Source: an uncultured Christensenella sp.
GTDB taxonomy: Bacteria; Bacillota; Clostridia; Christensenellales; DTU072
Length of the DNA: 12,402 nt
Reading direction: 5' to 3'
Assembly: GCA_964450015.1 (NCBI GenBank)
Contig: CAYVEU010000028.1
Coordinates: forward strand, 4,236 to 16,637
The notes below the pieces were generated by a model. The model was not told the origin of the DNA. It made no database searches and saw only the letters and a list, made by a program, of their open reading frames with translations. Every line of letters starts with the position of its first letter. The first letter of the stretch is position 1. The position numbers were made by a program, and so were the translations under genes. This document shows positions 1-11,051 of the stretch, piece by piece.

Positions 1-296
1 TTAACGTAGCAAGCGGTTCCGATACAGACGGAAATCTGATATTGACCTTGCGGATTGAGCGTGAATTGCGAATAGAAAGTCGCCACGCCGAAAACTTCTT
101 CCATGGAAACGTTCAATTCCTCGGCGATGATGCGCTGTACTTCGATAGGCAAATAGCCGTAAATTTCCTGCGCAGCTTGAAGCGAAGGCATTAAACCTCC
201 CTGCATGGTCTTCGTAACGGCAAGCCTGGCTCTAAGCTTTTCTTCTTGCTCGCGCGTGCCTGAAAACGAAACTTTTGTGAGTTTTATTTTACCCAT
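1..296 (-). CDS. NuoE/HndA-family thioredoxin-like [2Fe-2S] ferredoxin subunit (NADH dehydrogenase 24 kDa / hydrogenase subunit-like); C-terminus lies beyond window start
   Basis: Reverse-strand translation from ATG (294-296) gives MGKIKLTKVSFSGTREQEEKLRARLAVTKTMQGGLMPSLQAAQEIYGYLPIEVQRIIAEELNVSMEEVFGVATFYSQFTLNPQGQYQISVCIGTACYV. The GVATFY...CxGTAC motifs are typical of NuoE/HydC. RBS GGAGGG lies at 301-306 (minus), 4 nt upstream of the ATG. The ORF is open to position 1. Confidence 0.8.
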   Translation of the reverse strand, partial: MGKIKLTKVSFSGTREQEEKLRARLAVTKTMQGGLMPSLQAAQEIYGYLPIEVQRIIAEELNVSMEEVFGVATFYSQFTLNPQGQYQISVCIGTACYV

Positions 297-326
297 GTTA
301 CCCTCCATTGATAAATTATCGGTAAT

Positions 327-355
327 ATTATACCATAGCATTTTGCGATACGCAA
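327..355 (-). promoter_or_regulatory. Candidate sigma-A promoter for the NuoE-like gene (TTGCGT-17-TATAAT on minus strand)
   Basis: Minus-strand -35 TTGCGT (355->350) and -10 TATAAT (332->327) with a 17-nt spacer, about 30 nt upstream of the ATG at 296. Confidence 0.35.
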
Positions 356-477
356 GATAATTATTTCTTTTGTTTGCTATTTTTTACCGAGCAGGTCATA
401 GCATTAACGGATGCTTTGCGCGGGAAAATAAAGTTGATTTATCGTAAAAAAATAAGTGTGTTGGCGCCTAACCGAAA

Positions 478-505
478 GAGGCTGTCGCATTTAGCGAACA
501 GCCTC
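478..505 (-). terminator. Hairpin downstream of citrate synthase stop (possible intrinsic terminator, weak U-tract)
   Basis: Perfect 8-bp stem GAGGCTGT/ACAGCCTC with a 12-nt loop. The minus-strand downstream sequence UUUCGGUUA is only moderately U-rich. Confidence 0.35.
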
Positions 506-555
506 CGTTGCATTTACTCTTATTTATATCCTTATTATATATAATAAATGCCCGC

Positions 556-1929
556 TTATACTCTTTTGCTTAACGAAACGTATTGCTGTTTCTTCGCAAT
601 CCCGACGTAACCGGGGCGGATGATTTTTCCTTTGTTGGCGAGTTCTTCTATACGGTGCGCAGTCCAACCGGACATACGCGCTACGGCAAACATCGGCGTA
701 AACAGTCCGAGCGGCAATCCAAGCATATTGTATACGAACCCCGAATAAAAATCGATATTCGGGCATACGCCTTTATAAATTTTCCGCATGTCGGCAATAA
801 CTTCGGGGGCAAGTCTTTCGATTTTTTCGTAAAGCTCGTATTCTTTGTCGAGATGCTTTTCAACGGCAAGCAGTTTTACGTATTCTTTCAAAATATCCGC
901 TCTCGGGTCGCTTAGAGAATATACTGCGTGTCCCATGCCGTAAATAAGCCCCGACTTATCGAACGCTTCTTTTTTCAGTATCTTAGCCAAATAATCTTTA
1001 AGCGCACCTTCGTCACCGGTAGGAACGTTACGCTTTATATCCTCGAACATTTCCACGACCTTTATATTCGCTCCGCCGTGGCGCGGACCTTTTAACGAGC
1101 CCAAAGACGCGGCGATAACCGAATAGGTATCCGAACCCGAAGAGCTTACGACGTGGGTCGTAAAAGTCGAGTTGTTGCCGCCGCCGTGCTCGGCGTGCAG
1201 GACCAAACAAATATCGAGCAGCTTTGCTTCGAGCGAGCTGTAAACGCTGTCCGCCCGCAACAAGTGCAATATGTTTTCTGCGGTCGAGAGATTGTCGTCG
1301 GATTGGTGAATAATCAAGCTGTTGTTATTGTTGTAATACTCGTTGACTTGATAGCTGTAAACAGCAATCGCAGGCAATTGCGCAATCAGTTGCAAACACT
1401 GCCTCAAAACGTTCGCCATGCTTATATCGTCCGCCTTGTGGTCGTAAGAATACAGTGACAGTACGCTCCTTGCAAGCGAATTCATCATATCGGCAGAAGG
1501 CGCTTTCATAATTATATCCCTAACGAAGCTTTTGGGAATTTTCCTTAAACTTATGAGCAGAGACTTAAAATCTTCAAGCTGTTTTTTATTGGGAAGCGAA
1601 CCGAAAATAAGCAAATAAACGGTCTCCTCAAACCCGAAGCGTTTTTCCTTGACGAAGCCCGCCACCAGTTTTTTTACGTCTATACCGCGGTAGTACAATT
1701 CTCCCTCTATCGGCTTTTTCTCCCCGTCCTTTTCCGAAAAGCTTATAATATCGCTTATCTCGGTAAGTCCGGCGAGCACTCCCGTGCCGTTTATATCCCT
1801 AAGCCCTCTTTTTACGTCGTACTTTTCATAATTTGCCGAATCGATCAAAGTGCTTTGGTATGCAAGCTTGCTTAAAGCCGATATTTGCTCTTTTTGTCCG
1901 GATTCGAGCTTCGATAAAATAAAAGTCAT
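556..1929 (-). CDS. gltA: Citrate synthase
   Basis: 457-aa ORF carrying the citrate synthase signature blocks HAEHGGGNNSTFT, GPRHGGAN, GMGHAVY and NIDFYSG. SD GAGGT lies 9 nt upstream of the ATG at 1927-1929. Confidence 0.92.
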   Translation of the reverse strand: MTFILSKLESGQKEQISALSKLAYQSTLIDSANYEKYDVKRGLRDINGTGVLAGLTEISDIISFSEKDGEKKPIEGELYYRGIDVKKLVAGFVKEKRFGFEETVYLLIFGSLPNKKQLEDFKSLLISLRKIPKSFVRDIIMKAPSADMMNSLARSVLSLYSYDHKADDISMANVLRQCLQLIAQLPAIAVYSYQVNEYYNNNNSLIIHQSDDNLSTAENILHLLRADSVYSSLEAKLLDICLVLHAEHGGGNNSTFTTHVVSSSGSDTYSVIAASLGSLKGPRHGGANIKVVEMFEDIKRNVPTGDEGALKDYLAKILKKEAFDKSGLIYGMGHAVYSLSDPRADILKEYVKLLAVEKHLDKEYELYEKIERLAPEVIADMRKIYKGVCPNIDFYSGFVYNMLGLPLGLFTPMFAVARMSGWTAHRIEELANKGKIIRPGYVGIAKKQQYVSLSKRV

Positions 1930-1963
1930 TCTCAGTTACCTCAAAAAACAAATATGATTGTTT

Positions 1964-1992
1964 ATTGTAGCATAAAAATGAAAACTTTGCAA
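1964..1992 (-). promoter_or_regulatory. Candidate promoter for citrate synthase (TTGCAA-17-TGcTACAAT, extended -10)
   Basis: Minus-strand -35 TTGCAA (1992->1987), 17-nt spacer, TG at 1972-1971 and -10 TACAAT (1969->1964). Located about 35 nt upstream of the start codon. Confidence 0.45.
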
Positions 1993-2048
1993 ATCGCATA
2001 TTTTTGATGACTTTTGAACGATTTTTAATAAAAATTATCCGCGTATAG

Positions 2049-2080
2049 AAAAAAAGCACGGGCGTCGCCCGTGCTTTTTG
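2049..2080. terminator. Bidirectional intrinsic terminator (ends the minus-strand three-gene cassette)
   Basis: AAAAAAA-GCACGGGCG-tc-GCCCGTGC-TTTTT: a 9-bp GC-rich stem at 2056-2074 flanked by A-run and T-run. It lies 30 nt downstream of the stop at 2107 on the minus strand. Confidence 0.7.
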
Positions 2081-2106
2081 ATTTTTTCGTTTCGAAATCC
2101 ATTCGT

Positions 2107-2598
2107 TTAAGTGATTACCACCGAAGCATAGAAATGACTCGCGGTACTCGAAGCGGAACCGTTTAATAAAATCACGAGATAGTAGGTTTCCCCTTTTTTG
2201 AGATAAGCTCTCAACTTTGGCGTCTTGCCGCTATCGCTAATCAAAGTTTTTTTGTCTTTATCCCTGAGCGCAACGGAAACAGCATACGGCGAATTTATAG
2301 TAAAAGTGTAATAACCGTTTGAAGAATCCGCCTTGTAGCTGTAATAGGTTGTCGAACTCGTCAAGCACTTGACGCTGCTGTTGGTGCCGTACTTCAATGC
2401 TCCCGACGTCTTATACGGCGAGCGGCTACTTCCGCTTGAACTTGCGTTGCCTACGCCGATAACTCCCGCTAAGGCGAAAAATACGACAGCCAGCACGATA
2501 GATACAATGAGAATCATCAATCTTTTCGGCGACTTTGCAATTTGTTTAAAAACGTTTTGTCTTAACGTTATAGTCTTTTCTTCCGAAACATCGTTCAT
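2107..2598 (-). CDS. Hypothetical membrane-anchored protein with Ser/Thr/Tyr-rich beta-type ectodomain
   Basis: 163-aa ORF. The N-terminal ~30-aa basic segment is followed by a TM helix IVSIVLAVVFFALAGVIGVG, then NASSSGSSRS... and YYTFTINSPYAVSVAL...GETYYLVILL beta-like repeats. Its ATG overlaps the upstream stop (TAATG at 2596-2600). GGAGAG SD lies 8 nt upstream. Confidence 0.7.
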   Translation of the reverse strand: MNDVSEEKTITLRQNVFKQIAKSPKRLMILIVSIVLAVVFFALAGVIGVGNASSSGSSRSPYKTSGALKYGTNSSVKCLTSSTTYYSYKADSSNGYYTFTINSPYAVSVALRDKDKKTLISDSGKTPKLRAYLKKGETYYLVILLNGSASSTASHFYASVVIT

Positions 2599-3932
2599 TA
2601 TTTACTCTCCTCTATGCTGCTCTCGTTTTCCGCGTCGCCGACGCCGGTCTTTTCGTTCTCGACGAAATAAGCGTCTTCCTTTTCCTCGTCGCCTGTCTCC
2701 TTGCTCTTTTTGTTGAAAATCTTAATTTTATCCCACGCAAAAGCCGCCGTCAAGCCGAAAATCAAACTCGTACACCCTAAAATAATCAATCCTGCTACCA
2801 CCGAAGCTATCATCGTGAAGCACCCTACCAAGATACATAACGTCAACAGTATCAAAAATGCCGACGGACGACGCTTCTTCGGGCTAATCCAAGTGGACTC
2901 GGTTGCCGTCGTTTTCGTCCCCAAACCGCCGAACAACCGCCTTTTGAGCTTTTCATTGACTATGTCCGCTTCGTACTTATCCTGTTCGCCGGTGCGCTTT
3001 AAATATCTGTTCAACGCAAAATCCTTTTCCGCTTCGGTCAACGTCAACGGGAAATTGGGATATTTTTCGTGAATAGCGGCTTTTTCCTCGTAACGTTTTA
3101 ACGCTTGCTCCGCCATTTCGTTTTCAAAGTTCTTTATCCGCTCGGCTTCCGCCAACGCAAAATATTGATTTTCCAGTTTCTCCGTCGCATTGTTGGGGAT
3201 AACTATATTCAAAATGCTGACGTCGGCAACCGACAAGCCGTAACCTAGGCACAATTCTCGCAAGTCTTTTGCCGCTCTTTCGCCCATGCTTTGGTAATAC
3301 TTGGACAAATCGAAAAACGTTGCGTCGTTTTCCTCGATAACTTTAAGTACTACGTTGCGTATGCATTTGTTTATTAAATCGTGTAGCGTGACCACCGCTA
3401 AATTTAAATCTATTTGCGACAAGTCGAGATCAATTTTCTTGACCAATTCCAAAGAGTCGACTATCTTCAATTTTACTTTTGCCGTGGTTTTTAATTTTAT
3501 CGGCAACGCCAATTGTTTGTCAAAGTAGCGTACTATTTCGCCCTCTCTGGTTTCGTAGTTATAAAAAACGCAGATATTTTTATCGTAACTTTTTAACAGC
3601 CATATGGTTTTGTTTTTATCGTATCCTTCTACTTTGGTGAATTTTTCGTAAAGATAAATATTTACCAAATCTTTGTGCAGCTGATTTTCGTTGAGCAATA
3701 AAATATTGCTGTATCTGCAAGCGACCCACTCGCAAAGAGTCTTCCTTTGAAATTCGTCCGCAGGATTTAACTTTCTCGCATAGGCGGTATTGGCGTTCAT
3801 ACATTCGACGGCCGCTCGCCTCTCCGTTTCTTTGGCTAAGTTCAACGACGAAAATTTGATTTTTTCGCTCAATACTTTTTGACAAAGTTCACTCGCCTGA
3901 CGACTCCCGCGCACCTGTCCAACAGTACACAT
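2598..3932 (-). CDS. SPFH/band-7-like domain protein with coiled coil, C-terminal transmembrane hairpin and acidic tail
   Basis: 444-aa ORF. Segment IRNVVLKVIEENDATFFDLSKYYQSMGERAAKDLRELCLGYGLSVADVSILNIVIPNNATEKLENQYFALAEAERIK matches the C-terminal SPFH pattern (RxVIG.., GIxVxxVxIxxIxxP, AExxK). This is followed by an EAE/KRYEEK coiled coil, a ~44-aa hydrophobic segment SAFLILLTLCILVGCFTMIASVVAGLIILGCTSLIFGLTAAFAW, and a D/E-rich tail. SD AGGAGGG lies about 12 nt upstream. The ATG overlaps the upstream stop (TAATG at 3930-3934). Confidence 0.75.
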   Translation of the reverse strand: MCTVGQVRGSRQASELCQKVLSEKIKFSSLNLAKETERRAAVECMNANTAYARKLNPADEFQRKTLCEWVACRYSNILLLNENQLHKDLVNIYLYEKFTKVEGYDKNKTIWLLKSYDKNICVFYNYETREGEIVRYFDKQLALPIKLKTTAKVKLKIVDSLELVKKIDLDLSQIDLNLAVVTLHDLINKCIRNVVLKVIEENDATFFDLSKYYQSMGERAAKDLRELCLGYGLSVADVSILNIVIPNNATEKLENQYFALAEAERIKNFENEMAEQALKRYEEKAAIHEKYPNFPLTLTEAEKDFALNRYLKRTGEQDKYEADIVNEKLKRRLFGGLGTKTTATESTWISPKKRRPSAFLILLTLCILVGCFTMIASVVAGLIILGCTSLIFGLTAAFAWDKIKIFNKKSKETGDEEKEDAYFVENEKTGVGDAENESSIEESK

Positions 3933-4117
3933 TATTTACTTTTCCCTCCTTGTAAATATAAATAGTCGGAACACATTTCGCAAATCGAAGCGTCGGCAGA
4001 ATTTACGTGACCGCATATTTCGCAAATTATGCCCTTGTTATTCGGGATTTCCATATTCAAACTGACTTTTGCTTCCGCTTCGGATTTATTTAAACGTATA
4101 AACTTTTCCGTTCCCAA
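3932..4117 (-). CDS. Small zinc-ribbon protein (CxxC...CxxC), start uncertain (TTG 4117 or ATG 4054)
   Basis: C-terminal CEICGHVNSADASICEMC forms a CxxC-x10-CxxC ribbon. A strong SD GGAGGGAGAG (4130->4121) sits 8 nt before the in-frame TTG at 4117-4115. An alternative ATG at 4054 has a poor SD. The longer tracked ORF start (TTG at 4207) overlaps the predicted -35 box and is unlikely. Confidence 0.55.
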   Translation of the reverse strand: MGTEKFIRLNKSEAEAKVSLNMEIPNNKGIICEICGHVNSADASICEMCSDYLYLQGGKSK

Positions 4118-4177
4118 ATTCTCTCCCTCCTTTATTGTTCGTTTCACTTTCCCATTATACCGGGAAACGACTTTTTT

Positions 4178-4207
4178 ATTATAAAACCGACAAAAAATTA
4201 AAGTCAA
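4178..4207 (-). promoter_or_regulatory. Candidate promoter of the zinc-ribbon/SPFH/membrane cassette (TTGACT-18-TATAAT)
   Basis: Minus-strand -35 TTGACT (4207->4202), 18-nt spacer, -10 TATAAT (4183->4178). A second TATAAT lies at 4159->4154. A ~45-nt leader runs to the GGAGGG SD. Confidence 0.5.
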
Positions 4208-4353: not shown

Positions 4354-6993
4354 TTATTGTTTTTTGTATACCTTGCGCATGATAATTTTACAAAGTTCGA
4401 CGAGCGGTATTATCGCAATCGCCGCGAGTATTGCCGTAAGCCATTGTAAGAACGTTAAGTCTACTATTCCGAAAACGCCGTTAAGTCCGGGGATTGCCGC
4501 CACCCCGACAGTAAGCGCCGCGCCCACGCCGAACGCAACGAACATAAAGCGGTTTTTGAAAAAGCCTTTGCGGAATATACTGCCGTTAAGACTACGCGCG
4601 TTAAAGCAATGGAACAATTGAATAAGACACAGCGTTATAAACGCGAGGCTCTCGCCGACGTCGTGCCCCCAACTGCCGTAAACGCAGCCGAAAAACACCG
4701 CGAGTACGATAACCGTTTGCAAAATGCCTTGATACACTATGTTTATTCCCAAATGCCCCGCAAACAAATTGTCGTCGGATTTTCTCGGCGGGTTGTCCAT
4801 AATGTCGTCGTCGCCGTCTTCCATTCCCAATGCCAGCGCAGGCAGGCTGTCCGTGACGAGATTTATCCACAGTATTTGTATCGGCAATAAAAACACCGCG
4901 TTTTGTCCCGTAATAGAAAACACTATTGTGGATATAAACAAACTAAGCACCTCGCAAATATTCGCGCTCAACAAAAACTGTATAGTCTTTTGCATATTGT
5001 CGAATATCTTGCGCCCCTCTTTTACAGCTTCGACGATGGTTGCGAAATTGTCGTCGGCAAGCACCATGTCCGCCGCGCCTTTCGTCACGTCCGTACCGGT
5101 AATTCCCATGCCTACGCCTATGTCCGCCGCCTTAATACTCGGCGCGTCGTTTACTCCGTCGCCCGTCATCGCGACTATCTTCCCTTTTGCTTTCCACGCC
5201 TTGACTATCCGCACCTTGTGCTCGGGACTTACTCTTGCGTATACGCGGTAATTTTCCACGTTATCTCTCAGCTCGTCGTCGCTCATTTCGCTGAGAAGCG
5301 CGCCCGTGACGACCTGCTTTTCGCTGTCGCAAATTTTAAGCTCTTTCGCAATAGCGTACGCGGTATCCTTGTGGTCGCCCGTAATCATGACCGCCGTAAT
5401 GCCCGCCTTTTTGCACACTTCTACCGCAGCCTTAACTTCCTCTCGCGGCGGGTCTATCATTCCGCTCAAACCCAAAAACACCAAATTGCTTTCATAAACG
5501 CTTCCGTCGTCTTCCTTTTCGGCGTATGCGAGAACTCTCAACGCTTCCGACGCAAACAGAGAATTTTGCTTCAATATTTCCGCTCTGTCTGCGTCCGTCA
5601 TCTCTCTTATCTTCCCGTCGGCAAAAATTTTGTCACACCGTTCCGTTAAAATATCGGGCGCGCCTTTCGTATATACGGTCCGTTTTCCGTCACAGATATT
5701 GACGGTCGTCATAAGCTTACGTTCGCTGTCGAACGGTATCTCGTCTACGCGCGGATTTTCGTTATTCAATTTAACGCTGTCGCCCGTAAGATTGTAGTAT
5801 GCAACGAGCGCGGTTTCCGTCGGGTCGCCCATAAGCATAACGCCGTTCCCGTCGTTTTTCAACACGGTGTCGTTGCAAAGCGTCATACATTTTGCAACTT
5901 CCTTTTCGGCTGCCTCGCCCTCGGCGTACACCTTTTTGACCGTCATTTTATTTAATGTAAGCGTACCCGTCTTGTCTGAGCATATAATTTCAGTCGAGCC
6001 TAGCGTTTCTACGGCGGGAAGCTTTTTTATTATCGCGTTGCGCTTGCTCATTCGCTGTACGCCTATCGCCATAATAATGGTTATTACCGCGGTAAGCCCC
6101 TCGGGAATAGCCGCCACCGCAATGGCAACAGCCGTCATAAACGCGTCTATTACCGCGTCCACCGTCACGCCTATATGAATAGTGCTCAAAACGCTGACTA
6201 TGAAAATGACCGCCGCTATTGCAATAACCGCAATCGAAATGAATTTACCCGTTTTGTTGAGTTTTTTCTGTATGGGCGTTTCTTCGTCGCTGTCCGTTAG
6301 CATATCGGCAATCTTCCCGAGTTCGGTTTTCATTCCCGTTGCGACAACGACGCCTTCGCCCCTGCCGTAGCTGACCACCGAGGACGAAAACGCCATATTC
6401 ACCCTGTCGCCTATGCCCGCATTGTCGTCGCATACGACTTCCGCGTCCTTTTCCACTGGTACCGATTCGCCCGTCAATGCAGACTCCTCTATTTTAAGCG
6501 ACCGCGTTTCGATAAGCCGCAAATCGGCGGGCACGACGTCGCCTGCTTCCAGTAAAACTATATCGCCGACTACCAGCTTGGCGCTCTCTATTTTGATTAT
6601 TTCGCCGCCGCGCCTTACTTTGGCAAACGGTTTGCTCATGTTTTTCAGCGCTTCCAACGCCTGTTCCGCCTTGGACTCTTGCACGACGCCGATTATCGCG
6701 TTAATTATTACAATTGCCAGAATAATGCCGACGTCTATAAATTCGTCATAGGTCTTTTGCACGACCGCAATTACTGCCGTCACAACCGCCGCGCACAACA
6801 AGACGATGACCATTACGTCCTTGAACTGTTCTAAAAACCTTACGATAAGGCTCTTCTTTTTCTCGCCTTTTAATTCGTTTGCGCCGTCTCTTGCCAGCCT
6901 TTGCTCCGCGCTTTGCCGATTTAAACCGTCTTTTCCGCTGTCCGACGCTTTGAAACACTCGGCTAAACCCATCGAATACCATTTCAAGTCCAT
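4354..6993 (-). CDS. Cation-transporting P-type ATPase, type IIA/IIB (Ca2+/Mn2+ efflux, PMCA/SERCA-like)
   Basis: 879-aa ORF with the phosphorylation motif CSDKTGTLTLNKM. The hinge motifs are TGDHKDTA and MTGDGVNDAPSIKAADIGVGMG. The TM4 IPEGL motif is typical of P2 ATPases. About 10 predicted TM segments. SD AGGAG lies 6 nt upstream of the ATG at 6991-6993. Confidence 0.95.
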   Translation of the reverse strand: MDLKWYSMGLAECFKASDSGKDGLNRQSAEQRLARDGANELKGEKKKSLIVRFLEQFKDVMVIVLLCAAVVTAVIAVVQKTYDEFIDVGIILAIVIINAIIGVVQESKAEQALEALKNMSKPFAKVRRGGEIIKIESAKLVVGDIVLLEAGDVVPADLRLIETRSLKIEESALTGESVPVEKDAEVVCDDNAGIGDRVNMAFSSSVVSYGRGEGVVVATGMKTELGKIADMLTDSDEETPIQKKLNKTGKFISIAVIAIAAVIFIVSVLSTIHIGVTVDAVIDAFMTAVAIAVAAIPEGLTAVITIIMAIGVQRMSKRNAIIKKLPAVETLGSTEIICSDKTGTLTLNKMTVKKVYAEGEAAEKEVAKCMTLCNDTVLKNDGNGVMLMGDPTETALVAYYNLTGDSVKLNNENPRVDEIPFDSERKLMTTVNICDGKRTVYTKGAPDILTERCDKIFADGKIREMTDADRAEILKQNSLFASEALRVLAYAEKEDDGSVYESNLVFLGLSGMIDPPREEVKAAVEVCKKAGITAVMITGDHKDTAYAIAKELKICDSEKQVVTGALLSEMSDDELRDNVENYRVYARVSPEHKVRIVKAWKAKGKIVAMTGDGVNDAPSIKAADIGVGMGITGTDVTKGAADMVLADDNFATIVEAVKEGRKIFDNMQKTIQFLLSANICEVLSLFISTIVFSITGQNAVFLLPIQILWINLVTDSLPALALGMEDGDDDIMDNPPRKSDDNLFAGHLGINIVYQGILQTVIVLAVFFGCVYGSWGHDVGESLAFITLCLIQLFHCFNARSLNGSIFRKGFFKNRFMFVAFGVGAALTVGVAAIPGLNGVFGIVDLTFLQWLTAILAAIAIIPLVELCKIIMRKVYKKQ

Positions 6994-7021
6994 TTTTATC
7001 TCCTAATATCTTTATTATTCT

Positions 7022-7165
7022 CAAAAAAATAAGACTCAACGCATAGCAAAAACTATGCGTTGAGTCTTGTCGTTTCCGATAAGCCAAATTAAACCGGAGT
7101 TTAATCAGTGATGTTGACTTTACCGACGTTTCCCCGACGAAAAACGCCGACTACTCCCTCAACGT
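7022..7165 (-). promoter_or_regulatory. Structured 5' leader of the ATPase: candidate ON-type riboswitch or attenuator (possible yybP-ykoY/Mn2+-like) ending in intrinsic terminator 7022-7068
   Basis: Minus-strand leader 5'-UUGAGGGAGUAGUCGGCGUUUUUCGUCGGGGAAACGUCGG...UUAAACUCCGGUUUAA...CGGAAACG ACAAGACUCAACGCAUAG-UUUUUG-CUAUGCGUUGAGUCUU-AUUUUUUUGA. The terminator is a perfect 16-bp stem (7031-7046 / 7053-7068) followed by a U7 tract, 22 nt before the SD. The 5' UUGAG can pair with CUCAA inside the terminator's 5' arm as an anti-terminator P1. The GGGAGUAG and CGUCGGGGAAAC segments resemble conserved yybP-ykoY 5' elements. That resemblance is from memory and unverified. Confidence 0.5.
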
Positions 7166-7169
7166 TTTG

Positions 7170-7198
7170 ATAATATCATTATATTCCCCATCTGTCAA
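7170..7198 (-). promoter_or_regulatory. Candidate promoter for ATPase leader (TTGACA-17-TATTAT)
   Basis: Minus-strand -35 TTGACA (7198->7193), 17-nt spacer, -10 TATTAT (7175->7170). The predicted TSS near 7163 coincides with the start of the GGGAGUAG leader. Confidence 0.5.
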
Positions 7199-7232
7199 TA
7201 AGTTTTCTTAAAAAAATTATGCTCGGTTTACC

Positions 7233-7261
7233 TTGACTTGAAATTCTTATATCTATATAAT
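7233..7261 (+). promoter_or_regulatory. Consensus sigma-A promoter for the decarboxylase gene (TTGACT-17-TATAAT)
   Basis: TTGACT at 7233-7238 and TATAAT at 7256-7261 with an exact 17-nt spacer. Lies about 40 nt upstream of the ATG at 7301 and is divergent from the ATPase promoter. Confidence 0.65.
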
Positions 7262-7300
7262 TATGATAACGACACAATGTTAAAAGGAAACGAATAAATT

Positions 7301-8563
7301 ATGAAAAAACCGTTTATAACTAAGGAAAAAGCCGCTGAGATCGCGGCGGTATACCCCACTCCTTTTCACGTCTACGACGAAAAAGGAATTGTCGACAATG
7401 CAAAAGAGCTTTTCGCTTCTTTCGGTTGGAACAAAGGCTTTAAGGAATATTTTGCCGTAAAAGCTACCCCGAACCCCGCAATTTTGAAGCTTTTGAAATC
7501 CTGCGGCTGCGGCGTAGACTGTTCCAGCCTTACCGAACTTTTAATGGCGGAAGCGTGCGGATTTTCCGGCGACGAAATCATGTTTTCCAGCAACGAAACT
7601 CCCGCTCAGGAATTTGTGCTGGCACGCAAACTGAACGCAATCATCAACTTGGACGATATTACCCATATCGACTTTTTAAAGCAAAACGGCGGAATACCCA
7701 AAAAATTATGTTTGCGCTTCAATCCGGGCGGCGACTTCAAAATCGGCAACCGCATTATGGGCAACCCTGCCGACGCAAAGTACGGTCTTACCCGTCCGCA
7801 AATGTCCGAAGCCGTCAAGCGCTTGCTGAAAGAAGGCGTAGAGGAATTCGGTATTCACGCGTTTTTGGCAAGCAACACTTTGGGCAACGACTACTACCCC
7901 GAGCTTGCCCGTATCCTTTTTGAAACCGTCGCGGAAATAACCGAAGAAACGGGCGCGAAGTTCGTTTTCGTAAATTTGAGCGGCGGCATAGGCGTGCCCT
8001 ACCGCCCCGACCAACCGAAAAACGACGTTAAAGTTATCGCCAAAGGCGTGGAAAAAGCCTATAACGAAGTGCTTGTCGCCCGCGGCATAAAAGACGTTAA
8101 AATATTCACCGAGCTCGGTCGTTATATGCTCGCGCCCTACGGACACCTTGTAACGAGAGCAATCCACGTCAAGCACACCCACAAGGAATATATCGGCGTT
8201 GACGCTTGCGCGGCAAACCTTATGCGCCCCGCAATCTACGGCGCGTATCATCATATAACGGTACTCGGCAAGGAAAACGCGGACTGCGACCGAATCTACG
8301 ACGTAGTCGGCTCGCTGTGCGAAAACAGCGACAAATTCGCGGTGGACAGAGCCCTGCCTCAAATCGATATAGGCGACCTTTTGGCTATCCACGACGCGGG
8401 CGCGCACGGTTTCTCAATGGGCTACAACTATAACGGCAAATTGAGAAGCGCGGAAATATTGCTCCACGCCGACGGCTCTTTCGACTGTATCCGCCGCGCC
8501 GAAACTGTTAAGGACTACTTCGCAACCTTCAACTTTATGGACGAATTTAAAGAATACAGATAA
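7301..8563 (+). CDS. lysA: PLP-dependent fold-III decarboxylase, diaminopimelate decarboxylase (LysA) family
   Basis: 420-aa ORF with the PLP-lysine block FAVKATPNPAILKLL and the glycine-rich PLP phosphate loop NLSGGIGVPY. Also carries GSLCENSD (cf. DAPDC CESGD) and HDAGAHG. SD AAGGA lies upstream. The exact substrate (DAP, carboxynorspermidine or ornithine) is not resolvable by eye. Confidence 0.85.
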   Translation: MKKPFITKEKAAEIAAVYPTPFHVYDEKGIVDNAKELFASFGWNKGFKEYFAVKATPNPAILKLLKSCGCGVDCSSLTELLMAEACGFSGDEIMFSSNETPAQEFVLARKLNAIINLDDITHIDFLKQNGGIPKKLCLRFNPGGDFKIGNRIMGNPADAKYGLTRPQMSEAVKRLLKEGVEEFGIHAFLASNTLGNDYYPELARILFETVAEITEETGAKFVFVNLSGGIGVPYRPDQPKNDVKVIAKGVEKAYNEVLVARGIKDVKIFTELGRYMLAPYGHLVTRAIHVKHTHKEYIGVDACAANLMRPAIYGAYHHITVLGKENADCDRIYDVVGSLCENSDKFAVDRALPQIDIGDLLAIHDAGAHGFSMGYNYNGKLRSAEILLHADGSFDCIRRAETVKDYFATFNFMDEFKEYR

Positions 8564-8587
8564 GCCGAAAAAACTAAAATATACGAG

Positions 8588-8618
8588 AAAAGCTTGCCAA
8601 ACGGCAGGCTTTTTCTTT
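8588..8618 (+). terminator. Intrinsic terminator after the decarboxylase gene
   Basis: AAAAGCTTGCC-aaac-GGCAGGCTTTTTCTTT: a 7-bp stem with one G-U pair (8592-8598 / 8603-8609) followed by a T-run at 8610-8618. Confidence 0.7.
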
Positions 8619-8876
8619 ATGAAGTATTTCAATTTGCCTTATAATTTAGAACTCCTCTCTCTATACTTCGCTTTGTCCCGATTTTAAATGCGCTTTTTTG
8701 CAGTTATATTTACAATTTATCGGATATTTGCCGATTGTTGTTATAATCAACTTAATTTGTAATTATCGTTTTCCCATTTGCGGCGTATTTATCGTCGAAA
8801 TAAGAACTCTGAATTATATCCTCCGCAGCTCATACCCTCGTTTATTCAAAATATTTATAAATAAGTATTATAAGCG

Positions 8877-8912
8877 TTGCTACTTACCCAGCGAAATGTG
8901 TTAGAATATAAT
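8877..8912 (+). promoter_or_regulatory. Candidate promoter for surface-protein gene (TTGCTA ... TGtTAGAAT / TATAAT)
   Basis: -35-like TTGCTA at 8877-8882, extended -10 TGtTAGAAT at 8899-8907, and an overlapping TATAAT at 8907-8912. The SD GGAGG (8927-8931) is 5 nt before the ATG at 8937. The spacer is 19 nt, so the assignment is tentative. Confidence 0.35.
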
Positions 8913-8936
8913 AAACGCTAAAACACGGAGGAACTC

Positions 8937-10280
8937 ATGAGTAAAAATATTAGGCTCTCGATTTTTATTATTATTCTCTTCACGTTATTGGCGTTATGCG
9001 CGGCAACGAATTATTCCGATATAGCGTACGCGGCGGACGATAATACGGTAGAACTCGTATTCGTTTTCGACGAAAAGGTCTTAACGGAATTGCTTGTGAC
9101 GGAAGGCACGATCGCTCGCTCGCCCGATCTCGAAGATATTGCCGACGGTATACAAACGGGATATACCGTAGAATGGCGGTTTGCCGATAATAGAAAAGCG
9201 GAATTTCCATACGCCGTCAACGCAGCGGATTCGACCGAGGGCAAAATTTTCTTCTACGGTTCCCTCGTTCCGACAGAACCTGAAATAACGATAACCGTTT
9301 GCGCAGGAACCGACGAAACGACTTTTTCATACGCGTTCGGCACCGAACCCGCCTTGCCCGAGAAAGTTTTCGGCTTTACGGTAAGCGACTGGTACTTGGA
9401 CGACGATTACGGTAAAAAGTATACGCCGAAAATAATCGAAACGCCGTTTACACTCTACCCGCTTTTTACCGACAGGAAAATTACCGTCACGGTAGACGGC
9501 GAGGAAACCGAAGTGGATTTCGGCTCTAAGCTTCCGCCAAAAGCGGACACCGCTACGCACAAATTTGTAGGCTACTTGCAAAACGGGCTTCCTTTTAACG
9601 GAAGAATTTTATCACCTACTGCTTTAACTGCCGATTTCGAAAGAGTTAAATTTTGCGTGACCGTCGTAAAAGACGATTCGACAAAATTGTATTTTACCGT
9701 CGGCGAAGCGATAGAAAAGGACGCATTGGCAAGCTACGGCAATAAATTTACCTTGGACGCCGCAGGCGAAAACGCAGTAGCGTTTCCATTCACTCCCGAA
9801 GACGACGTAAATATCTACGCGTTTGACGAAACAACGGCCGTACCGGAAACGCCGACTACGCAAACCTTTGCGATAACCGTAATTTCCGAACACGCCGAAT
9901 TGATTGTAGCGTCCCGTTCGGAAGCCGGAAAAATCATCTCGTTTCGCGTCGTTTTCGTGGAAAGCGGTTTTAAAATAAATTCCCTGACAATTTCGTCCGA
10001 CGGTGCTTCCGTGCCCATGATTTTCGACAATACGACAGGCAGATTTATAATGCCGGAAGGCGACGTAACGATAACGATTACGTTTACCGACTCCGACGCA
10101 AATAATTATACGAACGCCAAGATAAAATTGACGACGAAAGAAATAATAGCCATATCCGTGACGGGCTCTGCCCTGCTGATTGCGGGCGTAACGATTTTAA
10201 TTATCAATATCAAAAAGAATAAAGATAAGAAGAAAACGGAAAAGAAACCGAGCGACGCTAACGGCTCGGCTTCAACGTAA
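8937..10280 (+). CDS. Secreted acidic Thr/Asp/Glu-rich surface protein with N-terminal signal peptide and C-terminal TM anchor plus Lys-rich cytoplasmic tail
   Basis: 447-aa ORF. The signal peptide is MSKNIRLSIFIIILFTLLALCAATNYSDIAYA|ADD. The ectodomain is long and beta-rich. The C-terminus is IIAISVTGSALLIAGVTILIINI followed by KKNKDKKKTEKK. No LPXTG or choline-binding repeats. Strong SD. Confidence 0.8.
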   Translation: MSKNIRLSIFIIILFTLLALCAATNYSDIAYAADDNTVELVFVFDEKVLTELLVTEGTIARSPDLEDIADGIQTGYTVEWRFADNRKAEFPYAVNAADSTEGKIFFYGSLVPTEPEITITVCAGTDETTFSYAFGTEPALPEKVFGFTVSDWYLDDDYGKKYTPKIIETPFTLYPLFTDRKITVTVDGEETEVDFGSKLPPKADTATHKFVGYLQNGLPFNGRILSPTALTADFERVKFCVTVVKDDSTKLYFTVGEAIEKDALASYGNKFTLDAAGENAVAFPFTPEDDVNIYAFDETTAVPETPTTQTFAITVISEHAELIVASRSEAGKIISFRVVFVESGFKINSLTISSDGASVPMIFDNTTGRFIMPEGDVTITITFTDSDANNYTNAKIKLTTKEIIAISVTGSALLIAGVTILIINIKKNKDKKKTEKKPSDANGSAST

Positions 10281-10346: not shown

Positions 10347-11051
10347 TTATTTATCCGCTTCTTCCGAAGACGCGTTCTCGCAGTTTTTATCTGCTCTCAT
10401 TTTCGATTTTTCGCTCAAAGCAAGCAATTGATAAGCTCTCACGAACAGTTCGCTCGTGTCGGAAATGTCTTTGCTGTTATCTACGATAGCTTTCACGACG
10501 TCCTTTTCAAAATTTTCGTTAGCTATTATTACGAACTTAAAATTTAGACCCTTTTCTTTGAAAAATTGGTTAAGATGTTTAATGGGTTGTGCTAAACTAC
10601 TAAATAGCTCGTTATTGATTTTCGGCGTAGCAAAGACAATTTCCGCAGTCCTTGCATTTAAGTAACCGTATATGCTTAGTGCTGTGCGTATATATTTCCC
10701 AATTACTTTACAAATAGTTTTCTTCTTTGAAGCATAGTTTAAACCGCCGGCGTGAAACGCCACGTCAACGGCATAAAACGTGGGTTCGCCGTCTCCGAAC
10801 TCAACACCCAACAGGTCGATTTCTCCCTGTTTGACTACTTGGCTCAGCGAACTGTTACCGAAAAGCTTGTAATCGTATTTTTTTTCGAAATACCCGTGCA
10901 AATCCTTAAATATCTCTTCGCTTACGCATTTCTTCTCATCGGACAAAACCGCCCATTGCCCCGAAACTTTCCAATTCGTGTGCACCAGCCTACATTTCTT
11001 TACGTGTAAAAGCCAAGAATAAAGAAGGGATTCCGCTATTTCTATTTTCAT
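10347..11051 (-). CDS. Hypothetical protein (234 aa), possibly nuclease-fold; co-oriented and likely co-transcribed with rarA
   Basis: ORF with SD AAGGAG 7 nt upstream of the ATG at 11049-11051 and only a 50-nt gap from the rarA stop. No recognisable catalytic signature. An E(6)...EIDLLGVE...VDVAF pattern is vaguely PD-(D/E)xK-like, and the tail is charged. Confidence 0.65.
   Translation of the reverse strand: MKIEIAESLLYSWLLHVKKCRLVHTNWKVSGQWAVLSDEKKCVSEEIFKDLHGYFEKKYDYKLFGNSSLSQVVKQGEIDLLGVEFGDGEPTFYAVDVAFHAGGLNYASKKKTICKVIGKYIRTALSIYGYLNARTAEIVFATPKINNELFSSLAQPIKHLNQFFKEKGLNFKFVIIANENFEKDVVKAIVDNSKDISDTSELFVRAYQLLALSEKSKMRADKNCENASSEEADK

Follow-up and report, generated by a model that had tools for sequence, protein, structure and literature searches.

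A conserved zinc-ribbon/SPFH gene pair with a predicted C-terminal membrane anchor in uncultured gut Clostridia

Organization of the cassette

The DNA stretch analyzed here (the window) comprises 12,402 nucleotides (nt) from an uncultured Christensenella sp. (assembly GCA_964450015.1, contig CAYVEU010000028.1, positions 4,236-16,637 of the forward strand). Its minus strand carries, between positions 2107 and 4207, three open reading frames (ORFs) which encode, in transcription order, a zinc-ribbon protein of 61 amino acids (aa), an SPFH (band-7) protein of 444 aa and a predicted single-pass membrane protein of 163 aa, referred to below as the products of gene 1, gene 2 and gene 3. The first two genes form a conserved pair, and the SPFH protein represents an uncharacterized, conserved family with a rearranged architecture, whereas the type of system to which it belongs is already known. 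The cassette contains the following features, all on the minus strand:

4178..4207 (-), sigma-70-type promoter-like site, TTGACT-18 nt-TATAAT (consensus scan, 11/12 positions)
3932..4117 (-), gene 1, 61-aa zinc-ribbon protein with a TTG start behind the Shine-Dalgarno sequence (SD) AAGGAGGGAGAG; maximal ORF 3932..4207
2598..3932 (-), gene 2, 444-aa SPFH protein with a C-terminal membrane hairpin (ORF, Pfam, AlphaFold2 (AF2) model)
3633..3905 (-), N-terminal all-helical domain of the gene 2 product, aa ~10-100, family-specific and without a known relative (AF2 model)
3189..3611 (-), SPFH (band-7) domain, alpha/beta, aa ~108-248 (AF2 model)
2988..3188 (-), long post-SPFH helix (aa 249-290, 42 residues) and conserved motif (aa ~281-311) (AF2 model, alignment)
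2733..2870 (-), C-terminal hydrophobic hairpin, aa ~355-400, two transmembrane (TM) helices joined by SVVAG (hydropathy, AF2 model)
2601..2732 (-), acidic C-terminal tail, aa 401-444, with 15 Asp/Glu and 8 Lys in 44 residues (translation)
2107..2598 (-), gene 3, 163-aa bitopic protein (ORF, translation)
2051..2079 (-), intrinsic terminator closing the cassette, 13-bp stem with 7 GC pairs and a 3-nt loop, with TTTTTTT next on the minus strand

Stop and start codons overlap by 1 nt, as TAATG, at the junctions of gene 1 with gene 2 and of gene 2 with gene 3, and the SDs AAGGAGGG and GAGGAG are located 8-15 nt ahead of the ATGs of gene 2 and gene 3, respectively. An earlier note on this DNA, made from the letters alone, had described a three-gene minus-strand unit with these junctions and SDs, a dedicated promoter at 4178-4207 and a strong terminator, and each of these elements was recovered in the sequence. 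The promoter-like site (4207-4178) shared the top score of the region in the consensus scan and lies between the terminator of the upstream gene and the SD of gene 1; judged from its match to the consensus, it is a putative promoter of the cassette. Since the upstream P-type ATPase gene (4354..6993) ends in a terminator of its own (4323-4293) and the cassette is closed by another, the three genes are bracketed and look like an independent transcription unit. Since an A-run borders the stem at 2051-2079 on one side and a T-run on the other, the terminator is potentially bidirectional. The citrate-synthase gene downstream has its own promoter-like site at 1993-1964 (-).

The SPFH protein and its relationship to YdjI

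In a Pfam search, the 444-aa protein matched Band_7 with 26.2 bits (cut-off 23.6) and Band_7_1 with 24.0 bits, which is exactly at the cut-off of 24.0 and covers profile positions 98-205 of 211 only; both matches are confined to residues 144-274. The AF2 single-chain model, which was built with 22 homologues as input and reached a predicted local distance difference test score (pLDDT) of 77.8, contains a complete SPFH domain with the long helix directly after it, a short conserved helix at aa 300-315 and a disordered linker before the hairpin. A fold comparison of the SPFH model returned HflK/C, prohibitin, stomatin and QmcA; searched against the PDB by sequence, the family profile gave no match, and these relatives are thus found at fold level only. 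What the earlier note had read into the middle protein is all present, namely an SPFH core, a coiled coil (the long helix of the model), a hairpin at the C-terminus and an acidic tail, and its assignment to the SPFH proteins was upheld by profile searches.

The family was delimited by a profile search of 1.84 billion cluster representatives, of which 98 matched at E<=1e-30. Nearly all are 400-500 aa long and have the layout of the window protein. Further down, the weaker tail of the search consisted of matches confined to profile positions ~138-260, in Band_7_1 proteins with at least one C-terminal zinc ribbon. Band_7_1 followed by a C-terminal zinc ribbon is the architecture of Bacillus subtilis YdjI (PMC8581546; PMC11237479). 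When the family was aligned with 16 such Band_7_1 zinc-ribbon proteins, the two profiles matched over 138 columns, starting from template column 95 (hhalign 99.3%, E 2.6e-20). The family has nothing that corresponds to the first ~95 residues of the Band_7_1 domain; it carries its own helical domain there and, in further distinction from Band_7_1, has added an invariant motif after the long helix.

Two proteins of 355 aa (P0134/P0135) represent bridging forms: a Band_7_1-type N-terminus, an SPFH domain and a long helix are followed by the same invariant motif (…YAEKAKIYKDYNYAYMTEYEKDKELNR…) and by a fused C-terminal ribbon, CEVCGQEIPANSTQCQYCSN. P0134 aligned with the family profile over 202 columns (hhalign 97.8%, E 8e-13). 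On the strength of these profile comparisons, the 444-aa protein appears to be a divergent YdjI-type (Band_7_1) SPFH protein.

The most conserved stretch of the family is not the SPFH domain but the end of the long helix together with the segment that follows. It reads Y-E-x-K-A-x-I-H-x-K-Y-P-x-F-P-L-T-L-T-E-A-E-K-D-F-A-L-N-R-Y-L (aa ~281-311), and 17 of the 29 invariant columns in an alignment of 22 sequences fall within aa 270-310. This motif may act as a family-specific interaction or oligomerization element. By eye, it (…LTLTEAEKDFALNRYL) resembles the pattern of SHOCT, a domain that commonly follows Band_7_1 (PMC3581485); this identity was rejected, as there was no Pfam match with the whole protein at E<=1 or with nine excised conserved segments at E<=10.

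A Met-Cys start is frequent in the family, including the window protein (MCTVGQ…, 3927-3932 (-)). It often takes the form M-C-[FL]-x-K-K and is not invariant, but recurs as an N-terminal Cys-plus-basic motif in homologues P0009, P0011, P0012, P0014, P0016 and P0019 and at the related loci L003, L004 and L005.

A C-terminal instead of an N-terminal membrane anchor

In the window protein, the hydrophobic block reads SAFLILLTLCILVGCFTMIA-SVVAG-LIILGCTSLIFGLTAAFAW and is enclosed by KKRRP and DKIKIFNKKSK; the AF2 model places its helices at aa 356-376 and 378 to ~400. A hydropathy scan of the 97 full-length representatives detected a hydrophobic block of 45-50 aa in the last quarter of 96 of them and an N-terminal TM segment in none (0/97). 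The hairpin thus appears to be a family trait, by which the 444-aa protein would anchor itself, and the exchange of an N-terminal for a C-terminal anchor that the earlier note had seen in one protein extends to its relatives. Both ends of the hairpin are predicted to be cytoplasmic, based on the positive-inside rule and on an N-terminal region of 355 aa that has no signal peptide.

A survey of prokaryotic SPFH proteins described all 12 subfamilies as soluble or as having N-terminal TM regions (PMC2636767). A band-7 protein with a C-terminal two-TM segment and SHOCT is mentioned once, in connection with polyamine operons (PMC11237479), which makes the C-terminal anchor unusual but not unprecedented. 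The module had been called possibly undescribed; this holds for the family, which is uncharacterized, and not for the C-terminal two-TM arrangement. The shared trait is the two-TM segment after band-7; by comparison with the published description, the cassette protein differs in having no detectable SHOCT, an acidic tail and no polyamine genes nearby, and the description of that group mentions neither zinc-ribbon nor PPC-like partners.

The acidic tail is modelled at low pLDDT and varies among homologues. Tails beyond the hairpin come in two flavours, being either acidic and disordered, as in the window protein, or helical with a Tyr-rich repeat, Y-x3-E-E-Y-x-K-x4-Y (e.g. YQRQYEEYQKALDDYYSKQ); the tails surveyed were those of P0002-P0005, P0013, P0020, P0035, P0044, P0066, P0080, P0101 and P0113, and the repeat is expanded several-fold in P0080.

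A detached zinc ribbon encoded upstream

The gene 1 product holds the ligands C32, C35, C46 and C49 in the motif C-x2-C-G-H-x-N-x6-C-x-M-C-S-x-Y-L, and an alignment of 15 sequences showed C32, C35, G36, N39, C46, C49, S50, Y52 and L53 to be invariant. Homologues share a weakly conserved k-v-S-L-x-V-x-x-P stretch which, in the window, lies upstream of an internal ATG, so that the TTG at 4117 (61 aa, behind AAGGAGGGAGAG) is the likely start. Being small and free of hydrophobic stretches, the protein is probably soluble.

Pfam zinc-ribbon families matched the gene 1 product below threshold only. A profile of the small proteins, however, aligned with the fused C-terminal ribbon of P0134 (hhalign 88%, E 3e-6) and, at 40% identity over 30 columns, with the ribbon of the classical Band_7_1 protein P0160 (hhalign 87%, E 4e-6); against a mixed Band_7_1 alignment the score was weaker (36%). 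A hidden Markov model (HMM) of the small proteins, run over the 181 proteins collected here, matched the C-terminal ribbons of Band_7_1 proteins and nothing else. By these profile matches, the 61-aa product is the counterpart of the zinc ribbon that is fused to the C-terminus of YdjI-type proteins. We use "detached" as a description of this ribbon and claim no evolutionary route; simple gene fission was considered as an origin and is unlikely, because the gene order puts the ribbon ahead of the SPFH protein, and in the fused forms it comes at the C-terminus.

Two loci carry variant ribbon genes. The zinc-ribbon protein of locus L007 (3075-3341 (+)) is longer, with a C-terminal extension of ~35 aa past the ribbon; its assigned start, GTC, is not a valid start codon, and the true start is uncertain. 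At locus L013, upstream of the cassette with the SPFH protein P0004, four tandem paralogous genes (174-2126 (+)) encode products of 93-112 aa in which an N-terminal C-x2-C…C-x2-C zinc ribbon is followed by two hydrophobic helices (weak Pfam matches to Zn_Ribbon_1 and DUF4190). They represent a second, membrane-bound kind of zinc-ribbon protein adjoining a zinc-ribbon/SPFH pair.

Synteny, distribution and genomic neighbourhood

Besides the window, we compared 16 related loci, ten from species-representative genomes and six from metagenome contigs. A zinc-ribbon gene (48-88 aa) lies directly upstream of the SPFH gene in all of them (16/16), and an SD precedes each gene. From the zinc-ribbon stop to the SPFH start, the related loci show a distance of 3-17 nt, except for 69 nt in L007; in the window, the two codons overlap by 1 nt. 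The zinc-ribbon and SPFH genes are thus always co-encoded and translationally coupled. Gene 3 is present in 9/14 assessable loci (L002, L003, L004, L005, L011, L012, L014, L015 and L016) at -8 to 18 nt from the SPFH gene, and absent from L001, L007, L009/L010 and L013; L006 and L008, whose contigs end too early, were left out of this count. Synteny outside the source genome therefore exists for all three genes, although of the triad proposed as a unit only the first two genes are constant: the conserved core is a dyad of zinc ribbon and SPFH protein.

The ten genome matches all belong to uncultured Clostridia, namely metagenome-assembled genomes (MAGs) of Clostridia, Clostridiales and Eubacteriales, a Christensenellaceae MAG and Candidatus Stercoripulliclostridium. 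The SPFH family is rare and found only in uncultured gut Clostridia.

The neighbourhood differs from locus to locus. Among 83 flanking ORFs at 14 loci, no Pfam family occurred in more than two loci; DegV, MFS_1, TrkA_N, SMC_N and AAA_21 were found in two loci each, and no PspA, NfeD, FtsH/protease, polyamine or defence gene was recurrent. In the window, the neighbours are ordinary housekeeping genes, encoding a citrate synthase, a cation P-type ATPase, a pyridoxal phosphate (PLP)-dependent decarboxylase and MgsA. The GC content is uniform, with 0.41-0.45 in the cassette and 0.41-0.51 in its surroundings, and an Rfam scan of the window detected no RNA family. With no recurring flanking family and a GC content equal to that of its flanks, the cassette appears autonomous among housekeeping genes. 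A PADLOC search with the three cassette proteins gave no match (0) and PHROGs returned nothing meaningful for them.

The accessory third gene

The gene 3 product consists of a basic N-terminal tail (aa 1-26, predicted to be cytoplasmic), a TM helix (aa 27-49), a Ser-rich linker and a Ser/Thr/Tyr-rich domain (aa ~74-162). Searched as a single sequence against 5.8 billion proteins, it retrieved only itself, and a profile of its positional homologues retrieved 11 proteins from the same number. These positional homologues share the layout of the window protein at 20-30% identity; the version encoded at L002 holds three copies of the domain.

The AF2 model of the ectodomain is an eight-stranded sandwich (pLDDT 70-88 in the domain, 62.6 overall); the model was obtained with database proteins. 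The window protein had no match in Pfam. Pfam PPC scored 25.1 bits on the L002 protein, just below the cut-off of 25.9, and the gene 3 profile matched a metalloprotease domain in the PDB (2luw, E 0.03). The ectodomain may therefore be described as PPC/collagen-binding-like at the level of the fold, with membership unproven. It differs from PPC (PF04151) and clostridial collagenase collagen-binding domains in that there is no peptidase, that an N-terminal TM helix tethers it and that it occurs in one to three copies.

In P0108 (614 aa), a member of the SPFH family, the hairpin is followed by a third TM helix and then by a gene 3-like domain. It is the only match outside the training set for an HMM of 18 third-gene proteins in the 181 sequences (residues 483-603, 28.5 bits, E 1.4e-8). 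As a natural fusion it supports a physical link between the SPFH protein and the gene 3 protein, and it fits the predicted topology, in which the hairpin would run in-out-in, the third helix in-out, and the sandwich would lie outside.

Downstream of the triad, locus L002 carries five same-strand genes (4817-9517 (+); 74, 544, 292, 207 and >571 aa) without a Pfam match; the 544-aa product contains an internal repeat (…KRYFVRQSFSFEAKLRASDDEVK… / …KRYFVRKSYAFEAKLRASDSEVK…).

Comparison with known systems

The closest known system is that of YdjI (SamI), encoded in the pspA-ydjGHI/samGHI operon, with which the earlier note had compared the cassette, along with other Band_7_1 (PF13421) proteins that have C-terminal zinc ribbons. 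YdjI is a soluble SPFH protein with a zinc finger that is recruited by YdjG/YdjH and localizes PspA (PMC8581546); PspA-independent signalling roles have also been described (bioRxiv 10.64898/2026.02.06.704340). Both systems share the SPFH subtype, an associated Cys4 zinc ribbon, a location at the cytoplasmic membrane face, which is predicted in our case, and an operon with small membrane proteins (PMC8581546). In the cassette, however, the ribbon is a separate 61-aa protein encoded upstream and the 444-aa protein has no fused ribbon; and while YdjI is soluble and needs YdjG/YdjH, the cassette protein would be self-anchored by its hairpin.

The comparison with pspA-ydjGHI thus stands for the SPFH domain and the zinc ribbon but not for the partners. 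YdjG consists of two zinc ribbons, an NTF2-like domain and a TM segment, and YdjH of a TPM domain (PMC11237479); compared with these published descriptions, the cassette operon contains no YdjG-like or TPM gene and no pspA. Its ribbon protein corresponds to the ribbon of YdjI itself and not to YdjG, and the gene 3 domain is PPC-like and not TPM. Neither the gene 1 nor the gene 3 product matched Pfam TPM_phosphatase, PspA_IM30 or TF_Zn_Ribbon.

Stomatin, flotillin, prohibitin, HflK/C, QmcA and erlin are anchored N-terminally, whereas the cassette family has a C-terminal anchor, a shorter helix and no NfeD or FtsH partner. As to an SPFH-NfeD operon, no NfeD match was obtained in the gene 3 protein or in the flanks, and the gene 3 domain is a PPC-like sandwich.

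Proposed function and rival explanations

SPFH proteins are universal membrane organizers which oligomerize and delimit or stabilize membrane patches and client proteins. The solved assemblies (HflK/C, flotillin, stomatin, prohibitin, erlin and QmcA) all begin with an N-terminal anchor. We favour, with moderate confidence, the interpretation that the cassette encodes a self-contained membrane-scaffold complex around the divergent YdjI-type SPFH protein, likely with a role in envelope organization or stress. The entire SPFH part would face the cytoplasm, held by the C-terminal hairpin, and would form a stoichiometric complex with the zinc-ribbon protein at the inner membrane face. Like other SPFH proteins, this complex would self-associate, using the SPFH domain together with the long helix and the invariant post-helix motif, and the assembled form would organize or stabilize a membrane patch. 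Where a gene 3 protein is present, its TM helix would pack against the hairpin, and this docking would link a ligand-binding domain outside to the scaffold inside. By analogy with YdjI/SamI, the physiological role may lie in envelope organization or the handling of envelope stress; unlike YdjI, the complex would be independent of YdjG/YdjH-type receptors and of an operon-encoded PspA. The membrane-stress role named in the earlier note can thus be retained as suggested by homology, while its contextual link to PspA did not materialize.

A bolder version of this proposal seems doubtful to us. It would involve an "inverted" SPFH assembly, attached via its C-terminal helical-wall end and with a geometry unlike any solved SPFH complex, plus a PspA-independent coupling of a cell-wall or external ligand to the cytoplasmic scaffold through contacts of the hairpin with the TM helix of the PPC-like protein.

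Several points weigh against the membrane-scaffold interpretation. The identity over the SPFH domain is 19%, which indicates distant homology, and the replacement of the N-terminal third of Band_7_1 makes any transfer of mechanism from YdjI uncertain. Solved SPFH cages have the N-terminus at the membrane and the C-terminus as distal cap; since the anchor here sits at the end that forms this cap, the geometry of the assembly may differ, or there may be no cage. The promoter-like site is of the housekeeping type and gives no sign of stress regulation. The ribbon-first gene order is not the one expected from fission of a C-terminal ribbon. Gene 3 is missing in about a third of the loci and is thus accessory rather than core, and the P0108 fusion is one protein with a modest score, for which an hhalign comparison with a smaller profile was weak (28%). 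Oligomerization, binding between ribbon and SPFH protein, and topology are predictions, and the functional interpretation as a whole draws on homology and sequence, the members being known here from their genes.

The YdjI-type SPFH domain would also suit a PspA-recruiting arm whose PspA is encoded elsewhere in the genome, as YdjI binds and localizes PspA (PMC8581546) and the genes for Psp partners are often found apart from pspA (PMC11237479). We consider this unlikely, though worth keeping in mind: no Pfam family, including PspA_IM30, occurs in more than two of the 14 loci, a count that covers the flanks only, there is none in the window, and the cassette partners are not YdjG or YdjH as described in PMC11237479. 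Less probable still is a cage that would serve quality control or compartmentalization of a client in the membrane, for instance a protease or a channel, in the manner of HflK/C-FtsH or stomatin/QmcA-NfeD, with the gene 3 product as the NfeD-like partner. The fold does match HflK/C, prohibitin, stomatin and QmcA, the translational coupling of an SPFH gene with one for a small membrane protein follows the classical logic of SPFH operons (PMC2636767), and PPC domains are typical of secreted proteases. Against this explanation, the beta domain of the gene 3 product is predicted to lie across the membrane from the SPFH domain, is a PPC-like sandwich and not an oligonucleotide/oligosaccharide-binding (OB) fold, and is missing in a third of the loci, and no NfeD, ClpP-like or FtsH gene recurs among the flanking ORFs.

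The rarity and patchiness of the family, the very fast divergence of the gene 3 protein, reflected in its 11 homologues, and its variable presence even at closely related loci (found in L014, missing from L013) are what an anti-phage or abortive-infection module might display, in which a membrane SPFH effector is triggered via a surface-exposed, fast-evolving beta-sandwich protein. A defence-type module had indeed been considered in the earlier note, together with a test for enrichment near PspA/Vipp1 or defence islands. Neither the module nor such an enrichment was borne out by the 83 flanking genes of the 14 loci, among which nothing of the kind recurs, nor by PADLOC and PHROGs; the neighbours are housekeeping genes that vary between loci, the cassette equals its flanks in GC content, and the proteins contain no nuclease, NTPase or other enzymatic effector domain, which leaves this explanation highly improbable. 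That three ORFs of unrelated function became neighbours by chance is hardly credible, given the pair in 16/16 loci and the triad in 9/14, start and stop codons that overlap or lie <=18 nt apart, and fused forms for both partners (the ribbon in P0134/P0135/P0160, the gene 3 protein in P0108).

If the membrane-scaffold interpretation is correct, the cassette would be a simpler counterpart of YdjI/SamI, a poorly understood system; it would be self-contained, comprising two or three proteins without a separate receptor, and could help to define the roles of zinc ribbon and SPFH protein at the membrane. An anchor at the opposite end raises the question of whether cage architecture is obligatory for SPFH function. 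The family is rare and has been seen in uncultured gut Clostridia only, so its practical weight is limited.

Further genes of the window

Two genes of the window outside the cassette deserve mention. No family could be assigned to the 234-aa ORF beside the MgsA gene (10347-11051 (-)): PHROGs returned nothing, and Pfam gave only weak matches, to HamA (E 0.016) and Redoxin (E 0.005). The gene at 8937-10280 (+) encodes a protein of 447 aa, probably anchored at the cell surface, which carries a signal-like hydrophobic segment at its N-terminus and, at its C-terminus, a TM helix with a Lys-rich tail; its only matches are weak ones, to InlB B-repeat-like domains (Flg_new_2, E 0.017).

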